10,984 nt of DNA from positions 1 through 10,984 of the IMG/VR virus record IMGVR_UViG_2778261151_000017; one strand, written 5' to 3'. Positions 1 to 10,984 of this stretch are shown piece by piece (position 1 is the stretch's first letter; the number at the start of each line of letters is the position of its first letter). The notes under the pieces are model-generated. The model searched no databases and was not told the DNA's origin. It worked only from the letters and a program-made list of their open reading frames with translations. This DNA is from a virus. Taxonomy: Duplodnaviria; Heunggongvirae; Uroviricota; Caudoviricetes. The translations under genes and the position numbers were made by a program.

Positions 1-648
1 ATGGCAGCGACGCACACACTCCCTCTGGCGTCACCGGGCATGGCACGCATCTGCCTTTACGGGGATTTACAACGATTTGGCCGCCGCATCGACCTTCGAG
101 TGAAAACGGGGTCTGAAGCCATCCGGGCGCTGGCCATGCAGATCCCGGCGTTTCGTCAGAAACTGAGCGACGGCTGGTACCAGGTACGCATTGCCGGGCG
201 TGATGCAGGTGAAACCGAATTGTCTGCCCGTCTTAATGAGCCGCTGGCAAATGGTGCCGTGATCCACATCGTGCCGCGTCTGGCGGGAGCTAAAAGTGGC
301 GGTGTGTTTCAGGTGGTGCTGGGGGCGGCGCTGATTGCGGTGGCATGGTGGAACCCTGTGGGCTGGCTGGGTGCCGCGGCTGTATCGGGCATGTATGCGG
401 CAGGGGCCAGTATGATCCTGGGCGGAGTGGCGCAGATGCTGGCACCGAAAGCCAGGACGCCCACGGCAGCAAGTACAGATAACGGCAAACAGAACACCTA
501 TTTCTCCTCACTGGATAACATGGTTGCCCAGGGCAATGTTCTGCCGGTTCTGTACGGTGAAATGCGCGTGGGGTCACGCGTGGTTTCTCAGGAAATCAGC
601 ACGGCAGACGAAGGGGATGGTGGGCAGGTTGTGGTGATTGGTCGCTGA
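1..648 (+). CDS. I: Tail tip assembly protein I (lambda gpI-like), 215 aa
   Basis: ORF of 215 aa starting with ATG at position 1. The N-terminus (MAATHTLPLASPGMARICLYGDLQRFGRRIDLRVKTG...) and C-terminus (...KQNTYFSSLDNMVAQGNVLPVLYGEMRVGSRVVSQEISTADEGDGGQVVVIGR) match my recollection of lambda gpI; the middle is Gly/Ala-rich and hydrophobic. It lies immediately upstream of J, as in lambda. The identification is from memory. Confidence 0.88.
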   Translation: MAATHTLPLASPGMARICLYGDLQRFGRRIDLRVKTGSEAIRALAMQIPAFRQKLSDGWYQVRIAGRDAGETELSARLNEPLANGAVIHIVPRLAGAKSGGVFQVVLGAALIAVAWWNPVGWLGAAAVSGMYAAGASMILGGVAQMLAPKARTPTAASTDNGKQNTYFSSLDNMVAQGNVLPVLYGEMRVGSRVVSQEISTADEGDGGQVVVIGR

Positions 649-666
649 TGCAAAATGTTTTATGTG

Positions 667-687
667 AAACCGCCTCCGGGCGGTTTT
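667..687 (+). other. GC-rich hairpin in the I-J intergenic spacer (possible attenuator or RNA stability element)
   Basis: aaaccgcc (667-674), loop tccg, ggcggttt (679-686) form an 8-bp stem, followed by a T-rich stretch (tttt a tcg ttt). It sits between the I stop (646-648) and the J ribosome-binding site GGAG (697-700). Confidence 0.3.
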
Positions 688-708
688 ATCGTTTATGGAG
701 CATGACGA

Positions 709-3700
709 ATGGGTAAAGGCAGCAGTAAGGGGCATACCCCGCGCGAAGCGAAGGACAACCTGAAGTCCACGCAGTTGCTGAGTGTGATCGATGCCATCAG
801 CGAAGGGCCGGTTGAAGGTCCGGTGGATGGATTAAAAAGCGTGCTGCTGAACAGTACGCCGGTGCTGGACACTGAGGGGAATACCAACATCTCCGGTGTC
901 ACGGTGGTGTTCCGTGCCGGTGAGCAGGAGCAGACACCGCCGGAGGGGTTTGAATCCTCCGGCTCCGAGACGGTGCTGGGTACGGAAGTGAAATATGACA
1001 CGCCGATCACCCGCACCATTACGTCTGCAAACATCGACCGTCTGCGCTTTACCTTCGGTGTGCAGGCACTGGTGGAAACCACCTCAAAGGGGGACCGGAA
1101 TCCATCGGAAGTCCGCCTGCTGGTTCAGATACAACGTAACGGTGGCTGGGTGACGGAAAAGGACATCACCATTAAGGGCAAAACCACCTCGCAGTATCTG
1201 GCCTCGGTGGTGGTGGATAACCTGCCGCCGCGCCCGTTCAGTATCCGGATGCGCAGAATGACGCCGGACAGCACCACAGACCAGTTGCAGAACAAAACGC
1301 TCTGGTCGTCATACACCGAAATTATCGATGTGAAACAGGGCTACCCGAACACGGCACTGGTCGGCGTACAGGTGGATTCGGAGCAGTTCGGCAGCCAGCA
1401 GGTGAGCCGTAATTATCATCTTCGCGGGCGCATTCTGCAGGTGCCGTCGAACTATAACCCGCAGACGCGACAATACAGCGGTATCTGGGACGGAACGTTA
1501 AAACCAGCATACAGCAACAACATGGCCTGGTGTCTGTGGGATATGCTGACCCACCCGCGCTACGGCATGGGAAAACGTCTTGGTGCGGCGGATGTGGACA
1601 AATGGGCGCTGTATGTCATCGGCCAGTACTGCGACCAGTCAGTGCCGGACGGCTTTGGCGGCACGGAGCCGCGCATCACCTGTAATGCGTACCTGACCAC
1701 ACAGCGCAAGGCGTGGGATGTGCTCAGTGATTTCTGCTCGGCGATGCGCTGTATGCCGGTATGGAACGGGCAGACGCTGACGTTCGTGCAGGACCGACCG
1801 TCGGATAAGGTGTGGGCCTATAACCGCAGTAATGTGGTGATGCCGGATGATGGTGCGCCGTTCCGCTACAGTTTCAGCGCCCTGAAAGACCGCCATAATG
1901 CCGTTGAGGTGAACTGGATTGACCCGGATAACGGCTGGGAGACGGCGACAGAGCTTGTTGAAGATACGCAGGCCATTGCCCGTTACGGTCGTAACGTCAC
2001 GAAGATGGATGCCTTTGGCTGTACCAGCCGGGGGCAGGCGCACCGCGCCGGGCTGTGGCTGATTAAAACGGAACTGCTGGAAACGCAGACCGTGGACTTC
2101 AGCGTGGGTGCGGAAGGGCTTCGCCATGTACCGGGGGATGTCATTGAAATCTGCGATGATGACTATGCGGGTATCAGCACCGGCGGGCGCGTGCTGGCGG
2201 TGAACAGCCAGACCCGGACGCTGACGCTCGACCGTGAAATCACGCTGCCATCCTCCGGTACCACGCTGATAAGCCTGGTTGACGGTCAGGGTAATCCGGT
2301 CAGCGTGGAGGTCCAGTCCGTCACCGACGGCGTGAAGGTGAAAGTGAGCCGTGTTCCTGACGGCGTTGCAGAATACAGCGTGTGGGGGCTGAAGCTGCCG
2401 ACGCTGCGCCAGCGCCTGTTCCGCTGCGTGAGTATCCGTGAGAACGACGACGGCACGTATGCCATCACCGCCGTGCAGCATGTACCGGAAAAAGAGGCCA
2501 TCGTGGATAACGGGGCGCACTTTGACGGCGACCAGAGCGGCACGGTAAATGGTGTCACGCCGCCAGCGGTGCAGCACCTGACTGCCGAAGTCACCGCAGA
2601 CAGCGGGGAATATCAGGTGCTGGCGCGCTGGGACACGCCGAAGGTGGTGAAGGGCGTGAGTTTCCTGCTTCGCCTGACCGTGGCAGCGGATGACGGCAGT
2701 GAGCGGCTGGTCAGCACGGCCCGGACGGCGGAAACCACATACCGCTTCACGCAACTGGCGCTGGGGAACTACAGGCTGACAGTCCGGGCGGTAAATGCGT
2801 GGGGACAGCAGGGCGATCCGGCATCGGTATCGTTCCGGATTGCCGCACCGGCAGCGCCGTCTCGGATTGAGCTGACGCCGGGCTATTTTCAGATAACCGC
2901 CACGCCGCATCTTGCGGTTTATGATCCGACGGTACAGTTTGAGTTCTGGTTCTCGGAAAAGCGGATTGCGGATATCAGGCAGGTTGAAACCACAGCCCGC
3001 TATCTTGGTACGGCGCTGTACTGGATAGCCGCCAGTATCAATATCAAACCGGGCCATGATTATTACTTTTATATCCGCAGTGTGAACACCGTTGGCAAAT
3101 CGGTATTCGTGGAGGCTGTTGGTCAGCCGAGTGATGATGCATCCGGCTATCTGGATTTTTTCAAAGGCGAGATAGGGAAAACCCATCTGGCTCAGGAGCT
3201 GTGGACGCAGATTGATAACGGTCAGCTTGCGCCTGACCTGGCTGAAATCAGGACGTCCATTACGGATGTCAGCAATGAAATCACACAGACCGTCAATAAG
3301 AAACTGGAAGACCAGAGTGCAGCGATCCAGCAGATACAGAAGGTTCAGGTTGATACAAATAATAACCTGAACAGCATGTGGGCAGTGAAGCTGCAGCAGA
3401 TGCAGGACGGACGCCTTTATATTGCGGGTATCGGTGCCGGTATTGAGAACACCCCTGACGGCATGCAGAGTCAGGTGCTGCTGGCGGCGGACAGGATTGC
3501 GATGATTAATCCTGCAAATGGCAACACAAAACCGATGTTTGTTGGTCAGGGTGATCAGATATTCATGAATGACGTGTTCCTGAAACGCCTGACGGCTCCC
3601 ACCATTACCAGCGGTGGAAATCCGCCGGCATTTTCCCTGACACCGGACGGAAAGCTGACCGCTAAAAATGCGGATATCAGTGGCAGTGTGAATGCGAACG

Positions 3701-4206
3701 CCGGGACGCTCAACAATGTCACGGTAAATGAAAACTGTACGATTAAGGGCATGCTGGAGGCGACTCAGGTCAGAGGTGACTTCGTTAAAGCTGTATCCAA
3801 ATCATTCCCGAAACAGGCTGGTACGTGGGGTAATACGGAAACACCAAACGGGACGGTTACAGTCACCATCAGCGATGATCATAACTTTGACCGTCAAATC
3901 ATTATTCCGCCCATTATCTTTAACGGAATAGCGTATAGCGATCCGGGAAGTGGTAATAACCCGGGAGGTACAAGATACACGGGTTATGGTTTTGAAGTTC
4001 GCAAAAACGGCGTATTAATCGCATCCAGAGAAACTAAAGGGGCCATTCCCGGTAGTTACAGTGCAGTTATTGATATGCCGAGTGGCAGGGGAAGCGTCAC
4101 TCTGGAGTTTAAGATTTTCCAGAAAGGCAATCAGGGGGCAGGCAATATCACCGACTGTACGGTGATTGTGACCAAAAAAGCCGCTTCCGGCATCAGTATT
4201 CGTTGA
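709..4206 (+). CDS. J: Tail tip host-specificity protein / central tail fibre J (lambda gpJ-like), 1165 aa
   Basis: ORF of 1165 aa with GGAG 8 nt upstream of the ATG. The N-terminal and central sequence ([34 protein letters not shown]..., [37 protein letters not shown]...) matches my recollection of lambda J. The size is close to lambda J (about 1130 aa) and it follows I. The C-terminal part (after about nt 3200) is the region I am least able to match from memory. Confidence 0.92.
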
Positions 4207-4224
4207 AATATTTATAACCCCAAT

Positions 4225-4252
4225 AAAGGGCGTCAGGAATGACGCCTTTTTT
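4225..4252 (+). terminator. Rho-independent terminator-like hairpin downstream of J
   Basis: Stem ggcgtca (4229-4235), loop ggaa, tgacgcc (4240-4246), extendable by A:U pairs, followed by tttttt (4247-4252). It starts 19 nt after the J stop codon. Confidence 0.6.
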
Positions 4253-4276: not shown

Positions 4277-4876
4277 ATGCGTAAAGTTTGTGCAGCAATT
4301 TTGTCCGCAGCCATTTGTCTGGCCGTATCCGGTGCGCCTGCATGGGCGTCTGAACATCAGTCCACGCTGAGCGCGGGGTATCTTCATGCCTCGACGAACG
4401 TCCCCGGCAGTGATGATCTGAACGGGATTAACGTGAAATACCGTTATGAGTTTACGGACACACTGGGGCTGGTGACGTCATTCAGCTATGCAGGAGACAA
4501 GAATCGCCAGCTGACCCGTTACAGCGATACCCGCTGGCATGAAGATTCCGTTCGTAACCGCTGGTTCAGCGTAATGGCGGGGCCGTCTGTGCGCGTGAAT
4601 GAATGGTTCAGCGCGTATGCGATGGCGGGTGTGGCTTACAGCCGTGTGTCGACTTTCTCCGGGGATTATCTTCGCGTAACTGACAACAAGGGGAAAAAGC
4701 ACGATGTGCTGACCGGAAGTGATGACGGTCGCCACAGCAACACGTCTCTGGCGTGGGGGGCTGGCGTGCAGTTTAACCCGACCGAATCCGTGGCCATTGA
4801 TATTGCTTATGAAGGCTCCGGCAGTGGTGACTGGCGCACTGACGGTTTCATCGTGGGTGTCGGTTATAAATTCTGA
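4277..4876 (+). CDS. lom: Lom outer-membrane protein (Ail/Lom family beta-barrel), 199 aa
   Basis: ORF of 199 aa with ribosome-binding site GAGAGG (4266-4271) 5 nt before the ATG. The N-terminus is signal-peptide-like (MRKVCAAILSAAICLAVSGAPAWA) and the protein ends in an aromatic residue (...GVGYKF), typical of outer-membrane beta-barrels. Sequence and position (between J and stf) match lambda lom as I recall it. Confidence 0.9.
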   Translation: MRKVCAAILSAAICLAVSGAPAWASEHQSTLSAGYLHASTNVPGSDDLNGINVKYRYEFTDTLGLVTSFSYAGDKNRQLTRYSDTRWHEDSVRNRWFSVMAGPSVRVNEWFSAYAMAGVAYSRVSTFSGDYLRVTDNKGKKHDVLTGSDDGRHSNTSLAWGAGVQFNPTESVAIDIAYEGSGSGDWRTDGFIVGVGYKF

Positions 4877-4940: not shown

Positions 4941-7900
4941 ATGGCAGTAAAGATTTCAGGTGTACTGAAAGACGGCACAGGAAAACCGGTACAGAACTGC
5001 ACAATCCAGCTGAAAGCAAAACGTAACAGCACCACGGTGGTGGTGAACACGCTGGCCTCAGAAAATCCGGATGAAGCCGGGCGTTACAGCATGGACGTTG
5101 AGTACGGGCAGTACAGCGTTATTCTGTTGGTGGAAGGCTTCCCGCCGTCACATGCCGGGACCATCGCCGTGTATGAAGATTCCCGACCCGGTACGCTGAA
5201 TGATTTTCTCGGTGCCATGACGGAGGATGATGCCCGTCCTGAGGCACTGCGCCGTTTTGAACTGATGGTGGAAGAGGTGGCGCGTAACGCGTCCGCGGTG
5301 GCACAGAACACGGCAGCCGCGAAGAAGTCAGCCAGCGATGCCGGCACATCAGCCCGTGAGGCGGCAACCCATGCGACTGATGCTGCAGGCTCAGCACGCG
5401 CAGCCAGCACGTCAGCCGGACAGGCCGCTTCGTCGGCTCAGTCAGCGTCTTCCAGCGCAGGAACGGCATCAACAAAGGCCACTGAAGCGGAAAAAAGTGC
5501 TGCCGCTGCAGAGTCCTCAAAAAGCGCGGCGGTCACCAGTGCCGCTGCGGCGAAAACGTCAGAAACGAATGCGGCAGCGTCACAACAATCAGCAGCCACT
5601 TCTGCATCCGCCGCGACCACGAAGGCGTCAGAAGCAGCCACCTCAGCCCGGGATGCGGCGGCCTCAAAAGAGGCAGCGAAATCATCAGAAACGAACGCAT
5701 CATCAAGCGCCAGTAGTGCCGCTTCCTCGGCAACGGCGGCAGGAAATTCCGCGAAGGCGGCAAAAACGTCCGAGACGAACGCCAGGTCTTCTGAAACGGC
5801 AGCGGGACAGAGTGCCTCAGCTGCGGCAGGCTCAAAAACAGCGGCTGCATCATCTGCCAGTGCCGCATCAACAAGTGCCGGGCAGGCCTCAGCCAGTGCC
5901 ACCGCTGCCGGAAAGTCGGCAGAAAGTGCCGCATCGTCTGCTTCAACAGCCACAACGAAGGCTGGCGAAGCCACTGAACAGGCCAGCGCAGCAGCGAGGT
6001 CAGCTTCCGCAGCGAAGACATCCGAAACGAACGCGAAAGCGTCGGAAACCCGTGCAGAATCCTCAAAAACGGCTGCCGCATCGTCAGCCAGTTCGGCGGC
6101 GTCATCGGCATCATCGGCGTCTGCTTCAAAAGATGAGGCGACCATACAGGCGTCAGCAGCGAAGGGCAGCGCCACGACGGCATCCACGAAGGCGACAGAG
6201 GCTGCTGGTAGTGCGACGGCAGCAGCTCAGAGCAAAAGTACGGCGGAATCTGCAGCAACGCGCGCTGAGACAGCGGCAAAACGGGCAGAGGATATTGCAT
6301 CCGCCGTGGCGCTTGAGGATGCGAGCACGACGAAAAAGGGGATAGTACAGCTCAGTAGTGCGACTAACAGCACGTCTGAAACGCTGGCGGCAACGCCAAA
6401 GGCAGTAAAATCAGCCTATGACAATGCAGAGAAACGTCTGCAGAAAGACCAGAACGGCGCTGATATACCCGATAAGGGACGCTTCCTGAACAACATTAAC
6501 GCGGTCAGTAAAACAGACTTTGCTGATAAGCGTGGTATGCGTTATGTGCGGGTTAACGCTCCTGCAGGTGCAACATCTGGAAAATATTACCCTGTTGTTG
6601 TTATGCGTTCTGCTGGCTCAGTAAGCGAACTGGCATCAAGGGTCATTATCACCACGGCAACGCGAACCGCAGGCGATCCGATGAATAACTGCGAGTTTAA
6701 CGGATTTGTTATGCCTGGTGGCTGGACTGACAGGGGGCGTTATGCTTATGGAATGTTCTGGCAATATCAAAACAATGAACGAGCCATCCACTCAATAATG
6801 ATGAGTAATAAGGGCGATGATTTGCGCTCTGTGTTCTATGTTGATGGCGCTGCTTTCCCTGTTTTTGCGTTTATCGAAGATGGCCTGTCAATATCCGCAC
6901 CTGGTGCTGATCTCGTTGTTAATGATACGACCTATAAGTTTGGGGCAACAAATCCGGCGACTGAATGTATCGCGGCGGACGTTATCCTTGATTTTAAGAG
7001 TGGGCGTGGTTTTTATGAGTCTCATTCGTTAATCGTTAACGATAACTTGTCGTGCAAAAAACTTTTTGCCACAGACGAAATTGTAGCGCGTGGTGGTAAT
7101 CAGATTCGAATGATAGGTGGGGAGTATGGGGCATTATGGCGTAATGATGGCGCTAAAACTTACCTGCTGCTTACCAATCAAGGTGATGTTTATGGTGGCT
7201 GGAATACATTAAGACCGTTTGCTATTGATAACGCAACCGGCGAACTGGTTATTGGAACCAAACTGTCCGCAAGTCTGAACGGTAATGCATTAACAGCAAC
7301 AAAGCTGCAAACGCCAAGACGGGTTTCTGGTGTTGAGTTTGATGGTTCCAAAGATATTACTTTAACCGCCGCGCATGTGGCTGCTTTTGCCAGAAGGGCA
7401 ACGGATACATATGCCGATGCGGATGGTGGCGTTCCCTGGAATGCCGAATCAGGCGCTTATAATGTCACCCGCTCTGGCGACAGCTATATTCTGGTTAACT
7501 TCTATACCGGAGTCGGAAGTTGCCGGACCTTGCAGATGAAGGCGCATTACAGAAATGGTGGTCTGTTCTACCGTTCTTCAAGAGACGGTTATGGTTTTGA
7601 GGAAGACTGGGCAGAAGTTTATACCTCGAAAAATCTTCCACCAGAAAGCTACCCAGTCGGCGCACCAATCCCGTGGCCATCAGATACCGTTCCGTCTGGT
7701 TATGCCCTGATGCAGGGGCAGACTTTTGACAAATCTGCCTACCCGAAACTTGCAGCCGCTTATCCGTCAGGCGTGATCCCTGATATGCGTGGCTGGACGA
7801 TTAAGGGCAAGCCCGCCAGTGGTCGTGCCGTATTGTCTCAGGAACAGGACGGCATAAAATCGCATACCCACAGCGCCAGCGCATCCAGTACTGATTTGGG

Positions 7901-8342
7901 GACGAAAACCACATCGTCGTTTGATTACGGCACTAAATCCACGAATAACACTGGTGCGCATACCCATAGTATTAGCGGGACCGCAAATAGTGCCGGCGCG
8001 CACCAACACAAGAGTTCCGGTGCATTTGGTGGCACGAACACGAGCATTTTCCCTAATGGTTATACCGCGATTTCAAATCCAAGCGCGGGGATTATGAGCA
8101 CAACAAGCGGTAGTGGCCAGACTCGTAATGCAGGGAAGACATCATCAGATGGTGCTCATACCCACTCGCTGTCCGGCACTGCTGCAAGCGCAGGCGCACA
8201 TGCACATACTGTCGGTATTGGTGCTCATACGCACTCCGTTGCGATTGGCTCACATGGACACACCATCACCGTTAACGCTGCGGGTAACGCGGAAAACACC
8301 GTCAAAAACATCGCATTTAACTATATTGTGAGGCTTGCATAA
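4941..8342 (+). CDS. stf: Side tail fibre protein Stf (lambda Stf-like), intact, about 1133 aa
   Basis: One continuous ORF. The N-terminus [26 protein letters not shown] and the C-terminus ...[11 protein letters not shown] match lambda Stf as I recall it. It contains a long Ala/Ser/Thr-rich segment with repeated K(T/S)SETNA motifs, the tail-fibre motif [43 protein letters not shown], and C-terminal His-x-His repeats (GAHTHS, GAHAHT, GSHGHT). I place the start at ATG 4941; the ORF track starts at an in-frame GTG at 4935, which is less likely. Confidence 0.88.
5283..6336 (+). repeat. Low-complexity Ala/Ser/Thr-rich coding repeat region inside stf
   Basis: About 350 codons are dominated by GCN, TCN and ACN codons. 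At least four imperfect copies of a roughly 24-nt unit encoding AAK(T/S)SETNA occur near 5553-5575, 5677-5699, 5763-5785 and 6013-6035. This region generates long spurious ORFs in the other frames. Confidence 0.65.
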
Positions 8343-8926
8343 TGGCATTCAGAATGAGTGAACAAGCACGGACTATAAAAATTTATAATCTGCTGGCCGG
8401 AACTAATGAATTTATTGGTGAAGGTGACGCATATATTCCGCCTCATACAGGTCTGCCAGCAAACAGTACCGATATTGCACCACCAGATATTCCGGCAGGC
8501 TTCGTGGCTGTTTTCAACAGTGATGAGGCATCGTGGCATCTCGTTGAAGACCATCGGGGTAAAACGGTTTATGACGTGGCTTCCGGCGACGCGTTATTTA
8601 TTTCTGAACTTGGCTCGTTACCGGAAAATGTCACCTGGTTATCGCCGGAAGGGGAATATCAGAAGTGGAACGGCACAGCCTGGGTGAAGGATCCGGAAGC
8701 AGAAAAACTGTTCCGGATCCGGGAGGCGGAAGAAACAAAAAACAGCCTGATGCAGGTAGCCAGTGAGCATATAGCGCCACTTCAGGATGCTGTAGATCTG
8801 GAGATCGCAACGGAGGAAGAAACCTCATTGCTGGAAGCCTGGAAAAAATATCGGGTGTTGCTGAACCGTGTTAATACAACAACTGCACCTGATATTGAGT
8901 GGCCGGAAGAACCAGACACAATGTAA
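8342..8926 (+). CDS. tfa: Tail fibre assembly protein / chaperone Tfa (lambda Tfa-like), 194 aa
   Basis: ORF of 194 aa beginning [44 protein letters not shown]..., matching my recollection of lambda Tfa. Its ATG overlaps the stf stop by 1 nt (TAATG at 8340-8344), and GAGG (8330-8333) lies 8 nt upstream. Confidence 0.9.
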
Positions 8927-9092: not shown

Positions 9093-9851
9093 TTAACATT
9101 CTGGATTTTTTATTTCTAAATCAGATAAAGCATTAATTCTTATTTTTTCTAAGGCTTTATCCATGGCCCCCTTGATTCTGTATCCATAATCATCCGGTTC
9201 TTCATATTCCTGTGGGGACGGATTTGTACCAATATTCTCAATTAATTCATTTAAAATAACTGTTACTTCTTTATTAAGAAGAACTGCTTTAGTTAACATC
9301 ATCTCTGTTAATGCTGTGAAGGCTAGGCTAAGTTTCTGTTGTAGCTCTTTATTTTTTAATTTAAGATCTTCATCGTTTAGTGCTTTATCACGGTCTTCGT
9401 GAGCCTGTTGTACTTCATCCCAAAACAGCTTTTCTTGTTCTTGATTAAAATATCCTTGATAACTATTGGCTACATATGTTGGCATCATGTGAATCTCAAT
9501 AATTTCAAATTCATTATCAGCCCATTTTTTTATACTAAGTAACTGAGTGTAAATGTACTCATACATATCGTACTTTTTTTGCCAGATTTGTTGAGAAATC
9601 CACAACTCAGAAGTAATCTTTTTTTCTATATCTTTGATAGTTGTTGTATTTAATGCTAACTGCTTTCTGAGTATTTCATAGTTAGCGTTGGTAGCAGAAA
9701 TTTTTGCTTTTTCAGTTATAAAAGAAACAATAAAGTTCACTATGAGAGCTGCAATAATAATAGCGAAGCTCAACCCTAAAATCTCTGTGGTTGAGAAATT
9801 AGATGACTGTAATGCTTTGATAAGTTCAAAAAACTGTTTTTCTGTGAGCAT
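9093..9851 (-). CDS. Hypothetical single-pass membrane protein, 252 aa, function unknown (accessory / candidate defence gene)
   Basis: An uninterrupted 252-codon ORF in DNA of about 22-40% GC, where stop codons are frequent by chance, so it is very likely real. A possible ribosome-binding site AAGG lies 4 nt before the ATG (9849-9851) on the - strand. It has one hydrophobic helix near the N-terminus (ILGLSFAIIIAALIVNFIVSFI, about residues 24-45), then a K/E/Q-rich, Trp/Tyr-containing region with coiled-coil character and an acidic C-terminal end. I see no Walker A, HEXXH, HNH or other catalytic motif. Confidence 0.78.
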   Translation of the reverse strand: MLTEKQFFELIKALQSSNFSTTEILGLSFAIIIAALIVNFIVSFITEKAKISATNANYEILRKQLALNTTTIKDIEKKITSELWISQQIWQKKYDMYEYIYTQLLSIKKWADNEFEIIEIHMMPTYVANSYQGYFNQEQEKLFWDEVQQAHEDRDKALNDEDLKLKNKELQQKLSLAFTALTEMMLTKAVLLNKEVTVILNELIENIGTNPSPQEYEEPDDYGYRIKGAMDKALEKIRINALSDLEIKNPEC

Positions 9852-9949: not shown

Positions 9950-10984
9950 TCAAGGGGGTGAGATTGTAGAGGCGTTACCTTGTTCTATCACACCAGACCT
10001 AATCTTATAACTACCAAGGATGTTGACCGTTTTATTATTTTTCATCGCGTCAAAAATTAAGCCTATTTCATCAGGATCATTGATAAAACTGGTATCAACA
10101 TAGATCGGGAATGAATCATCACCTGTTGGCTCATGGCAGCTTAACGTTAGCTTATCGGCTGAGCGTTTTATACTATCAATGACAACTTCCAATGTTTGCT
10201 GCTCTGACTTAGCCTTTTCAATTGGGTTCTTGATGATTTCTTGAACCTGACCTTGCGAAAGCTCAATATTGCTGGCCCCGCGGATCGTCACTTTGTCTGC
10301 ATCAGATGCACCTTTAAGAACTCCAGTGTATGCCTTAGCTGTGTGCTCTTGGATACCTTCGGCGCGCTCTATCGTATCAATACCTTCATGTGCTTTTATT
10401 GCAGACAGCATACCATCGCGTAGAATTGTCATCCGCTCGGATTCTGCTCGCTGTTTTGCTTCTTCCAGTTGTAACTCAATAGTTTTGGTTTCGACTTGTG
10501 TCTGATGATCTAAGTAGGACGTACCGACCCATGCGCCGCCTAAAACTAAGACAGCAAACAGGAAACACATTGTTTTCTGTCTTGGGCTCATACCTTGCGT
10601 TACCTTCTCAAATGCGTTACCAAAGGAATCAATAAGTTCTTTAACTGAGGTGATAATTTCTGTGCAGCCAGGATTGATAGTAAAAACCAACTCTGCAGCT
10701 TCTCGATCCTCAGCAGTGAGCTTCTGTAAGTTAGAGGTTTTGTACTTGATTAGAGTAAAAACCTTGTACATCTCAGTTTGAAATTCACAGATACCCTGTG
10801 CCAAACTTGCAGGCAGAGTACCATTATACTTATCTTCATCACCAAAAAATTTGAAATCAATACTTTCTAAGAAGTTTAACTTCAAATTTTCAATGTGGAT
10901 TTCTTCGCCTGAAATAACTCGTCCGAAAATATTTTCTATATCATCAATATCATTGATTTCATAGGCCTGAATTGCATCTTCCAT
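9950..10984 (-). CDS. Hypothetical membrane-anchored protein, 344 aa, function unknown (accessory / candidate defence gene)
   Basis: A 344-codon ORF on the - strand whose ATG is the last three bases of the window (10982-10984), so its promoter and ribosome-binding site are not visible. It has a highly acidic N-terminal region (MEDAIQAYEINDIDDIENIF...), one central hydrophobic helix (MCFLFAVLVLGGAWVGTSYL, about residues 138-157) preceded by basic residues (SPRQKT), then a charged segment with coiled-coil character (IELQLEEAKQRAESERMTILRDG...) and a C-terminal region (...GDDSFPIYVDTSFINDPDEIGLIFDAMKNNKTVNILGSYKIRSG...). I recognise no catalytic motif. Confidence 0.75.
   Translation of the reverse strand: MEDAIQAYEINDIDDIENIFGRVISGEEIHIENLKLNFLESIDFKFFGDEDKYNGTLPASLAQGICEFQTEMYKVFTLIKYKTSNLQKLTAEDREAAELVFTINPGCTEIITSVKELIDSFGNAFEKVTQGMSPRQKTMCFLFAVLVLGGAWVGTSYLDHQTQVETKTIELQLEEAKQRAESERMTILRDGMLSAIKAHEGIDTIERAEGIQEHTAKAYTGVLKGASDADKVTIRGASNIELSQGQVQEIIKNPIEKAKSEQQTLEVVIDSIKRSADKLTLSCHEPTGDDSFPIYVDTSFINDPDEIGLIFDAMKNNKTVNILGSYKIRSGVIEQGNASTISPP

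Follow-up and report, generated by a model that had tools for sequence, protein, structure and literature searches.

A lambda-like tail tip protein J with a phi21-type shaft and a 434-type receptor-binding domain, probably directed at OmpC

The distal tail genes and the departure of J from lambda

The window, that is, the whole stretch of 10,984 nucleotides of a tailed phage record (IMGVR_UViG_2778261151_000017) that was analysed, carries its distal tail genes in the lambda order I, J, lom, stf and tfa. In the list of open reading frames gene I occupies positions 1-648, upstream of J, and J itself, the tail tip attachment or central tail fibre protein, is encoded on the plus strand at 709..4206, with a translation of 1165 amino acids followed by a stop. 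Directly 3' of J lies a gene for an Ail/Lom outer-membrane protein (lom, plus strand, 4277..4876; Pfam Ail_Lom, E = 1e-122), then an intact, full-length side tail fibre gene (stf, plus strand, 4941-8342; Pfam phage_tail_N, Gp34_trimer and Collar) and a tail fibre assembly gene (tfa, plus strand, 8342-8926; Pfam Caudo_TAP). The Pfam search identifies the gene after J as lom and not as cor, the latter being a gene associated with FhuA, and the same J-lom order is found in Ayreon, mEp460, 434 and WGPS6. The stf/tfa pair is a second host-range determinant besides J; here Stf shares 69% identity with the C-terminus of lambda Stf over its last 250 amino acids, and tfa has 93.6% nucleotide identity to that of lambda. 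The window also holds two low-GC open reading frames on the minus strand, and for these downstream frames Pfam, PADLOC and PHROGs searches returned no functional assignment.

Six J-specific Pfam models were matched in J above cut-off and in the expected order, the models being FNIII-A_GpJ, Phage-tail_3, Ig_J, Ig_J_second, Phage_Tail_Tip and Ig_GpJ_C. Both this domain set and the genomic position are those of the lambda-like tip attachment protein J (gpJ) family, and over its full length the gene has 96-97% nucleotide identity to J of phi458, cdtI, ev099 and Ayreon.

Lambda J has 1132 residues (NC_001416), as against 1165 here. Pairwise alignment with lambda and with lambdoid J homologues (BLASTP, MAFFT) showed residues 1-805 to be about 98% identical to lambda J and set the point of divergence at residue 806, nucleotide 3124; at the DNA level identity to lambda is 91.8% over nucleotides 1-3205. 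Residues 806-895 (nucleotides 3124-3393) are 32% identical to lambda and include 28 additional residues within amino acids 836-870, residues 896-950 (nucleotides 3394-3558) are 58% identical, residues 951-1010 (nucleotides 3559-3738) form an island of near-identity at 93%, with 92-98% nucleotide identity to lambda over nucleotides 3529-3708, and residues 1011-1165 (nucleotides 3739-4203) are 37% identical, with small indels. The 33-residue excess over lambda is made up of 28 residues in the shaft and a net five in the receptor-binding domain (RBD), the latter number following from 434 J, which joins a lambda-type shaft to the same type of RBD and has 1137 amino acids. Over the swapped part of J the GC content drops from about 0.62 to 0.47-0.51. 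The pattern of divergence, the length and the GC shift cannot be the product of chance.

A previous sequence-only reading of this DNA had matched the first 800 or so residues to lambda J and contrasted the 1165 amino acids with about 1130 in lambda; both statements were borne out by the alignment, and the excess length is now fully accounted for. It had also proposed that the C-terminal part is a non-lambda allele, and this holds: near-identity to lambda J across the whole C-terminal region, which would have spoken against that proposal, was not seen, and the RBD aligns without gaps and at 94% identity with that of 434. Two details needed revision. The divergent region, placed by that reading at 3200-4206, does comprise a divergent C-terminus but begins about 75 nucleotides earlier, and what had been taken for one divergent tail is in fact two separately swapped modules, shaft and RBD, on either side of a conserved island.

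Segments of J and their closest relatives

J was aligned with the J proteins of lambda, 434, 434B, phi21, Ayreon, mEp460, Stx2a_WGPS6, YYZ-2008 and PhiR5_1, with BP-4795 included in a separate alignment only, and identity to this J was scored over the body (residues 1-805), shaft (806-895), upper fibre (896-950), island (951-1010) and RBD (1011-1165). Cryo-EM of lambda gpJ has revealed a succession of hub, two FNIII domains, alpha-helical shaft, beta-sheet prism and Ig-like RBD, in which the prism forms the central straight fibre and four bottom loops of the RBD insert into LamB (PMC11101478). The insertion of 28 residues is flanked by the Pfam matches to Ig_J_second (716-818) and Phage_Tail_Tip (872-1000), and since this position corresponds to that of the alpha-helical shaft of lambda gpJ (PMC11101478), the region containing it was taken as the shaft; the limits of the shaft segment as used here are points of divergence and not structural boundaries.

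The body, encoded at 709..3123 on the plus strand as are all the segments that follow, comprises the hub domains and two FNIII/Ig domains and is common to lambda, 434 and phi21, being 98% identical to this J in each of the three as well as in mEp460 and Ayreon. The shaft (3124..3393) is of the phi21 long type, with both the 28 extra residues and a phi21-like sequence (88 of 90 positions identical to phi21), and the upper beta-prism fibre (3394..3558) is likewise of phi21 type, with 54 of 55 positions identical. Thus phi21 is 98% identical in shaft and upper fibre, but only 85% in the island and 39% in the RBD. The reverse holds for 434, with 33% in the shaft, 58% in the upper fibre, 90% in the island and 94% in the RBD (146 of 155 residues, gap-free), and for mEp460, with 31, 56, 95 and 96% over the same four segments. 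Ayreon matches throughout (shaft 100%, upper fibre 100%, island 93%, RBD 98%), and WGPS6 does so in all segments except the body (body 76%, shaft 99%, upper fibre 100%, island 88%, RBD 97%). More distant are YYZ-2008 (body 73%, shaft 60%, upper fibre 60%, island 85%, RBD 42%) and PhiR5_1 (body 74%, shaft 57%, upper fibre 60%, island 80%, RBD 38%). In the phage collection the shaft was found at 95% identity or more in 65 records and at 60-80% in a further 56, while about 130 records carry the short lambda-type shaft at about 32%.

This J is therefore a natural three-part mosaic, in which a shared body is combined with a shaft and upper fibre of phi21 type and with a 434-type RBD (3739..4203) that forms an Ig-like beta-sandwich. 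Because shaft types and RBD types combine freely among lambda, 434, mEp460, phi21, Ayreon, WGPS6, YYZ-2008 and PhiR5_1, the two modules are exchanged independently, and the view that lambdoid phages exchange the C-terminal segment of J, advanced earlier from the sequence, is well supported by this independent assortment across eight phages. The lower-fibre island (3559..3738) is the sole segment conserved throughout, at 80-95% identity to each of the eight J types compared, and is likely a natural crossover site for RBD exchange. The same island has been used by engineers to swap gpJ RBDs, as in the chimeras A8 and 1A2 (PMC11338833, PMC12502783).

The receptor-binding domain and its probable porin

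The RBD is 37% identical to that of lambda, 39% to that of phi21, 42% to that of YYZ-2008 and A8, and 38% to that of PhiR5_1 and 1A2, and its high gap-free identity to 434, set well apart from these other classes, assigns it to the 434 type (h434). It does not belong with the lambda-type, LamB-binding domains, given its low identity to them and the indels at both specificity loops, namely two residues inserted at the counterpart of the lambda loop around residue 1012 and six residues missing at that of the loop around residue 1107. Sites 1012 and 1107 of lambda J are universally required in switching to OmpF, and natural J proteins show lineage-defining indels at these sites as well (PMC6646904).

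Pfam Ig_GpJ_C was matched at residues 1029-1164, and an AlphaFold2 (AF2) model was built of residues 1000-1165, with a mean pLDDT of 77.4. The best Foldseek matches of the RBD model were 8xcj, 9wcb, 8xck and 9wca, with E about 1e-13 and TM 0.69, and further matches appeared only at E of 1e-4 or higher. Of these entries, 8xck and 8xcj are the lambda gpJ RBD in closed and LamB-bound form, and 9wca and 9wcb the A8 gpJ RBD in closed and OmpC-bound form. Together, the Pfam match and the predicted model confirm the gpJ RBD fold, an Ig-like beta-sandwich, for this J.

Three domains known to bind OmpC were considered as possible counterparts and were set aside. The A8 chimera is of YYZ-2008 type and 42% identical to this RBD, and the 1A2 chimera is of PhiR5_1 type and 38% identical; the A8 sequence was taken from PDB 9wca ("A8 gpJ 713") and that of 1A2 from a machine-read supplement of PMC11338833. 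Phage phi330, an Stx phage whose need for OmpC was demonstrated by knockout and complementation (PMC12502783), had been expected to share the present RBD on account of this need and because WGPS6, its closest relative, has the domain, but phi330 proved to have an A8-type RBD with 43% identity. It follows that at least three distinct classes of J RBD bind OmpC, i.e., the 434 type, the A8/YYZ-2008 type and the 1A2/PhiR5_1 type.

As to the 434 type, OmpC is given as the receptor of phage 434, and lambda with 434 J is said to bind OmpC and not LamB, in three papers that are secondary sources on this point (PMC3509688, PMC11101478, PMC12502783). In the lambda h434 imm21 hybrid (OM418627) the sequence switches from lambda to 434 at about J residue 705-711. 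The J proteins of lambda and 434 differ at 125 positions, of which 107 lie after residue 951 and only 8 between 711 and 951, so that within J the h434 host-range difference is essentially that of the RBD. The hybrid carries the lom and stf of 434 as well, and thus the classical h434 genetics does not isolate the RBD alone. K-12 is recorded as a host of Ayreon (RBD 98% identical), PhiR26_1 (99.4%) and PhiR34_1, and the receptor of this type of RBD is therefore one expressed by K-12. In the literature searched, no adsorption or knockout data were found for long-shaft phages with this RBD, and no usable receptor data for Ayreon, cdtI, phi458, ev099, WGPS6, mEp332, mEp460 or the PhiR series. Since the RBD is of 434 type, sequence comparison makes it quite probable that this mosaic J, with its RBD joined at the island, is directed at a porin, most likely OmpC and not LamB.

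By analogy with lambda, a similar signalling mechanism is inferred for this J. The central fibre would end in the three Ig-like RBDs of a J trimer, as in lambda gpJ, and loops of the RBD would insert into a trimeric porin; binding would then pass up the fibre and shaft and lead to opening of the tail. The RBD itself would be joined to the remainder of the protein through residues 951-1010 by a homologous-recombination crossover.

Substitutions in the domain bear on whether its specificity is quite that of 434. In the last 165 residues there are 11 changes from 434 to this J: V1006I, E1008Q, S1032A, Q1036K, A1037V, N1047D, S1077D, R1127G, I1136V, Q1138H and G1143R. The group Q1036K, A1037V and N1047D flanks the counterpart of the lambda loop at 1012, G1143R is positioned within that of the loop at 1107, and R1127G and S1077D are at loop ends in the AF2 model; several of the changes border loops that may contact the receptor. 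The domain could accordingly be thought of as retuned, recognizing another set of OmpC alleles, or a different trimeric porin such as OmpF, instead of or besides OmpC of K-12. There is precedent for such behavior, in that A8 and 1A2, both of them OmpC-binding classes, are selective as to the OmpC allele (PMC11338833), and by analogy the substitutions could tune which OmpC alleles are recognized here; further, phi21 uses LamB and acquires OmpC use by a single J mutation, then OmpF with few J mutations in all, so that small changes can alter specificity (PMC11336670). Against this stand the 94% identity to 434 without indels, the near-identical RBDs of PhiR26_1 and Ayreon in phages with K-12 hosts, and the recurrence of most of the 11 substitutions in mEp460, WGPS6 or Ayreon, which gives them the look of ordinary within-class polymorphism. 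A retuned domain is thus an unlikely reading, and the specific proposition that the 11 substitutions, four of them by the loops of receptor choice in lambda, have shifted the RBD to a subset of OmpC alleles or to a second porin is likewise doubtful. Were it true, the phage, with its intact lambda-like side fibre, would have an unusual dual-fibre receptor strategy.

That the domain still uses LamB, as do those of lambda and phi21, is very improbable. The fold and trimeric architecture are indeed held in common, and phi21, with the same type of shaft, is a LamB phage (PMC11336670), but it is the RBD of the OmpC phage 434 that this one resembles, and indels are found at both of the sites that determine specificity in lambda. 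Scarcely to be credited is a J that is the decaying remnant of a defective prophage, with a C-terminus that no longer binds. Many E. coli prophages are defective, and of the complete E. coli genomes in the collection none matches the window in full at high identity, the best covering 86% of it; yet the 1165-codon frame is uninterrupted, I, lom, stf and tfa around it are intact, several genomes contain the RBD DNA at 100% identity, and in plaque-forming Ayreon J is equally long, its shaft being 100% and its RBD 98% identical. A functional 434-type RBD, probably for OmpC, remains the preferred reading.

Distribution of the allele and comparison with known J proteins

The 434-type RBD is a discrete class in the phage collection, with 74 records at 90% identity or more and the next class at 45% or less; its members include cdtI, Ayreon, mEp460, mEp332, ev099 and many Stx1a and Stx2c phages. 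Clusters in the protein database at 92-99% identity to the RBD have thousands of members, from E. coli, E. albertii and Shigella sonnei. Of 5,426 complete E. coli genomes, 2,112 carry the 467-nucleotide RBD block, several copies being 100% identical, as against 98 that carry the lambda RBD block, all at 99% identity or more; the genomes with the lambda type among the matches listed (three) are those of laboratory strains. The 434 type is therefore the common natural allele, and that of lambda the rare one. In lambda genetics h434 is a classic allele, and sequenced phages already contain the two modules, singly and joined as here; the allele is long known and opens no new question. What the locus does provide is a textbook example of how modules are exchanged inside a single gene, in which body, shaft and RBD differ in their closest relatives and the RBD joint sits in the same conserved island as in the engineered gpJ chimeras. 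For annotation, it is predicted that this phage or prophage adsorbs via OmpC rather than LamB.

Among characterized proteins, 434 J (OL657226, UMO75286) is like this J in its RBD, in its body and in having lom 3' of J, but differs from it in the short lambda-type shaft, with 1137 amino acids in all, and in the 11 substitutions of the last 165 residues. The J of phi21 (OL657228) shares the body, the long shaft with its 28 additional residues and the upper fibre, but not the RBD, its receptor being LamB (PMC11336670). Lambda gpJ (P03749; PDB 8iyk, 8xck, 8xcj) has the same domain order, fold, body and island, and departs from this J in its short shaft, in an RBD with indels at 1012 and 1107, and in its receptor, LamB. 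The same combination of long shaft and 434-type RBD is found in J of Ayreon, cdtI, phi458, ev099 and Stx2a_WGPS6, of which the first four have point differences only, whereas WGPS6 has a different body. Finally, A8 (PDB 9wca, 9wcb), 1A2 and phi330 have the same fold and an OmpC-binding, non-lambda RBD joined at the same island (PMC11338833, PMC12502783), but their domains, with 42-43% identity to the present RBD for A8, YYZ-2008 and phi330 and 38% for 1A2 and PhiR5_1, belong to other classes.

Divergence and base composition along J

When window positions 1-3205 are aligned with lambda 14773-18002, no more than 91.8% of the DNA is identical, whereas the J body (residues 1-805 of this tail tip attachment protein) retains 98% protein identity with lambda, and the differences between the window and lambda are therefore mostly synonymous. 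This preponderance of synonymous change indicates long divergence, with strong purifying selection acting on the J body. Further along the gene, GC content is 0.47-0.51 over 3250-4250, the swapped 3' third of J, compared to approximately 0.62 at nt 2000-3000, a fall that would fit modules derived from different sources.

Extent of the h434 allele and the J residue Phe952

In the sequenced hybrid lambda h434 imm21 (L012, OM418627), lambda sequence switches to 434 sequence at J residues ~705-711 (locus 3620-3638), and 434 sequence then continues across lom, stf and further; the "h434 allele" thus comprises more than the J receptor domain alone. Lambda J Phe924 determines triggering of the Gifsy-1 HepS abortive-infection nuclease by J, and Gifsy phages have Ile at the equivalent site (PMC13043305). 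The counterpart in the window J, Phe952 (3562-3564, motif QIFMND), keeps the Phe, and from this sequence the protein would be predicted to trigger HepS.

Minus-strand ORFs and side tail fibre genes

Two minus-strand ORFs in a stretch of 31-45% GC, located where lambda has its b region, may be accessory or moron genes. The ORF at 9093-9851 (252 aa) had no matches in Pfam, PADLOC or PHROG, and that at 9950-10984 (344 aa) matched in these only phrog_6191, a function-unknown family.

Ur-lambda Stf binds OmpC (PMC11338833), and therefore both fibres of the window, J and Stf, might target this same porin. The plus-strand genes stf (side tail fibre, 1133 aa) and then tfa span 4941-8926. The window stf is intact, whereas that of laboratory lambda is frameshifted; the C-terminal 250 aa of Stf, including His-rich repeats, show 69% identity with the corresponding end of lambda Stf, and tfa shares 93.6% nucleotide identity with lambda tfa.
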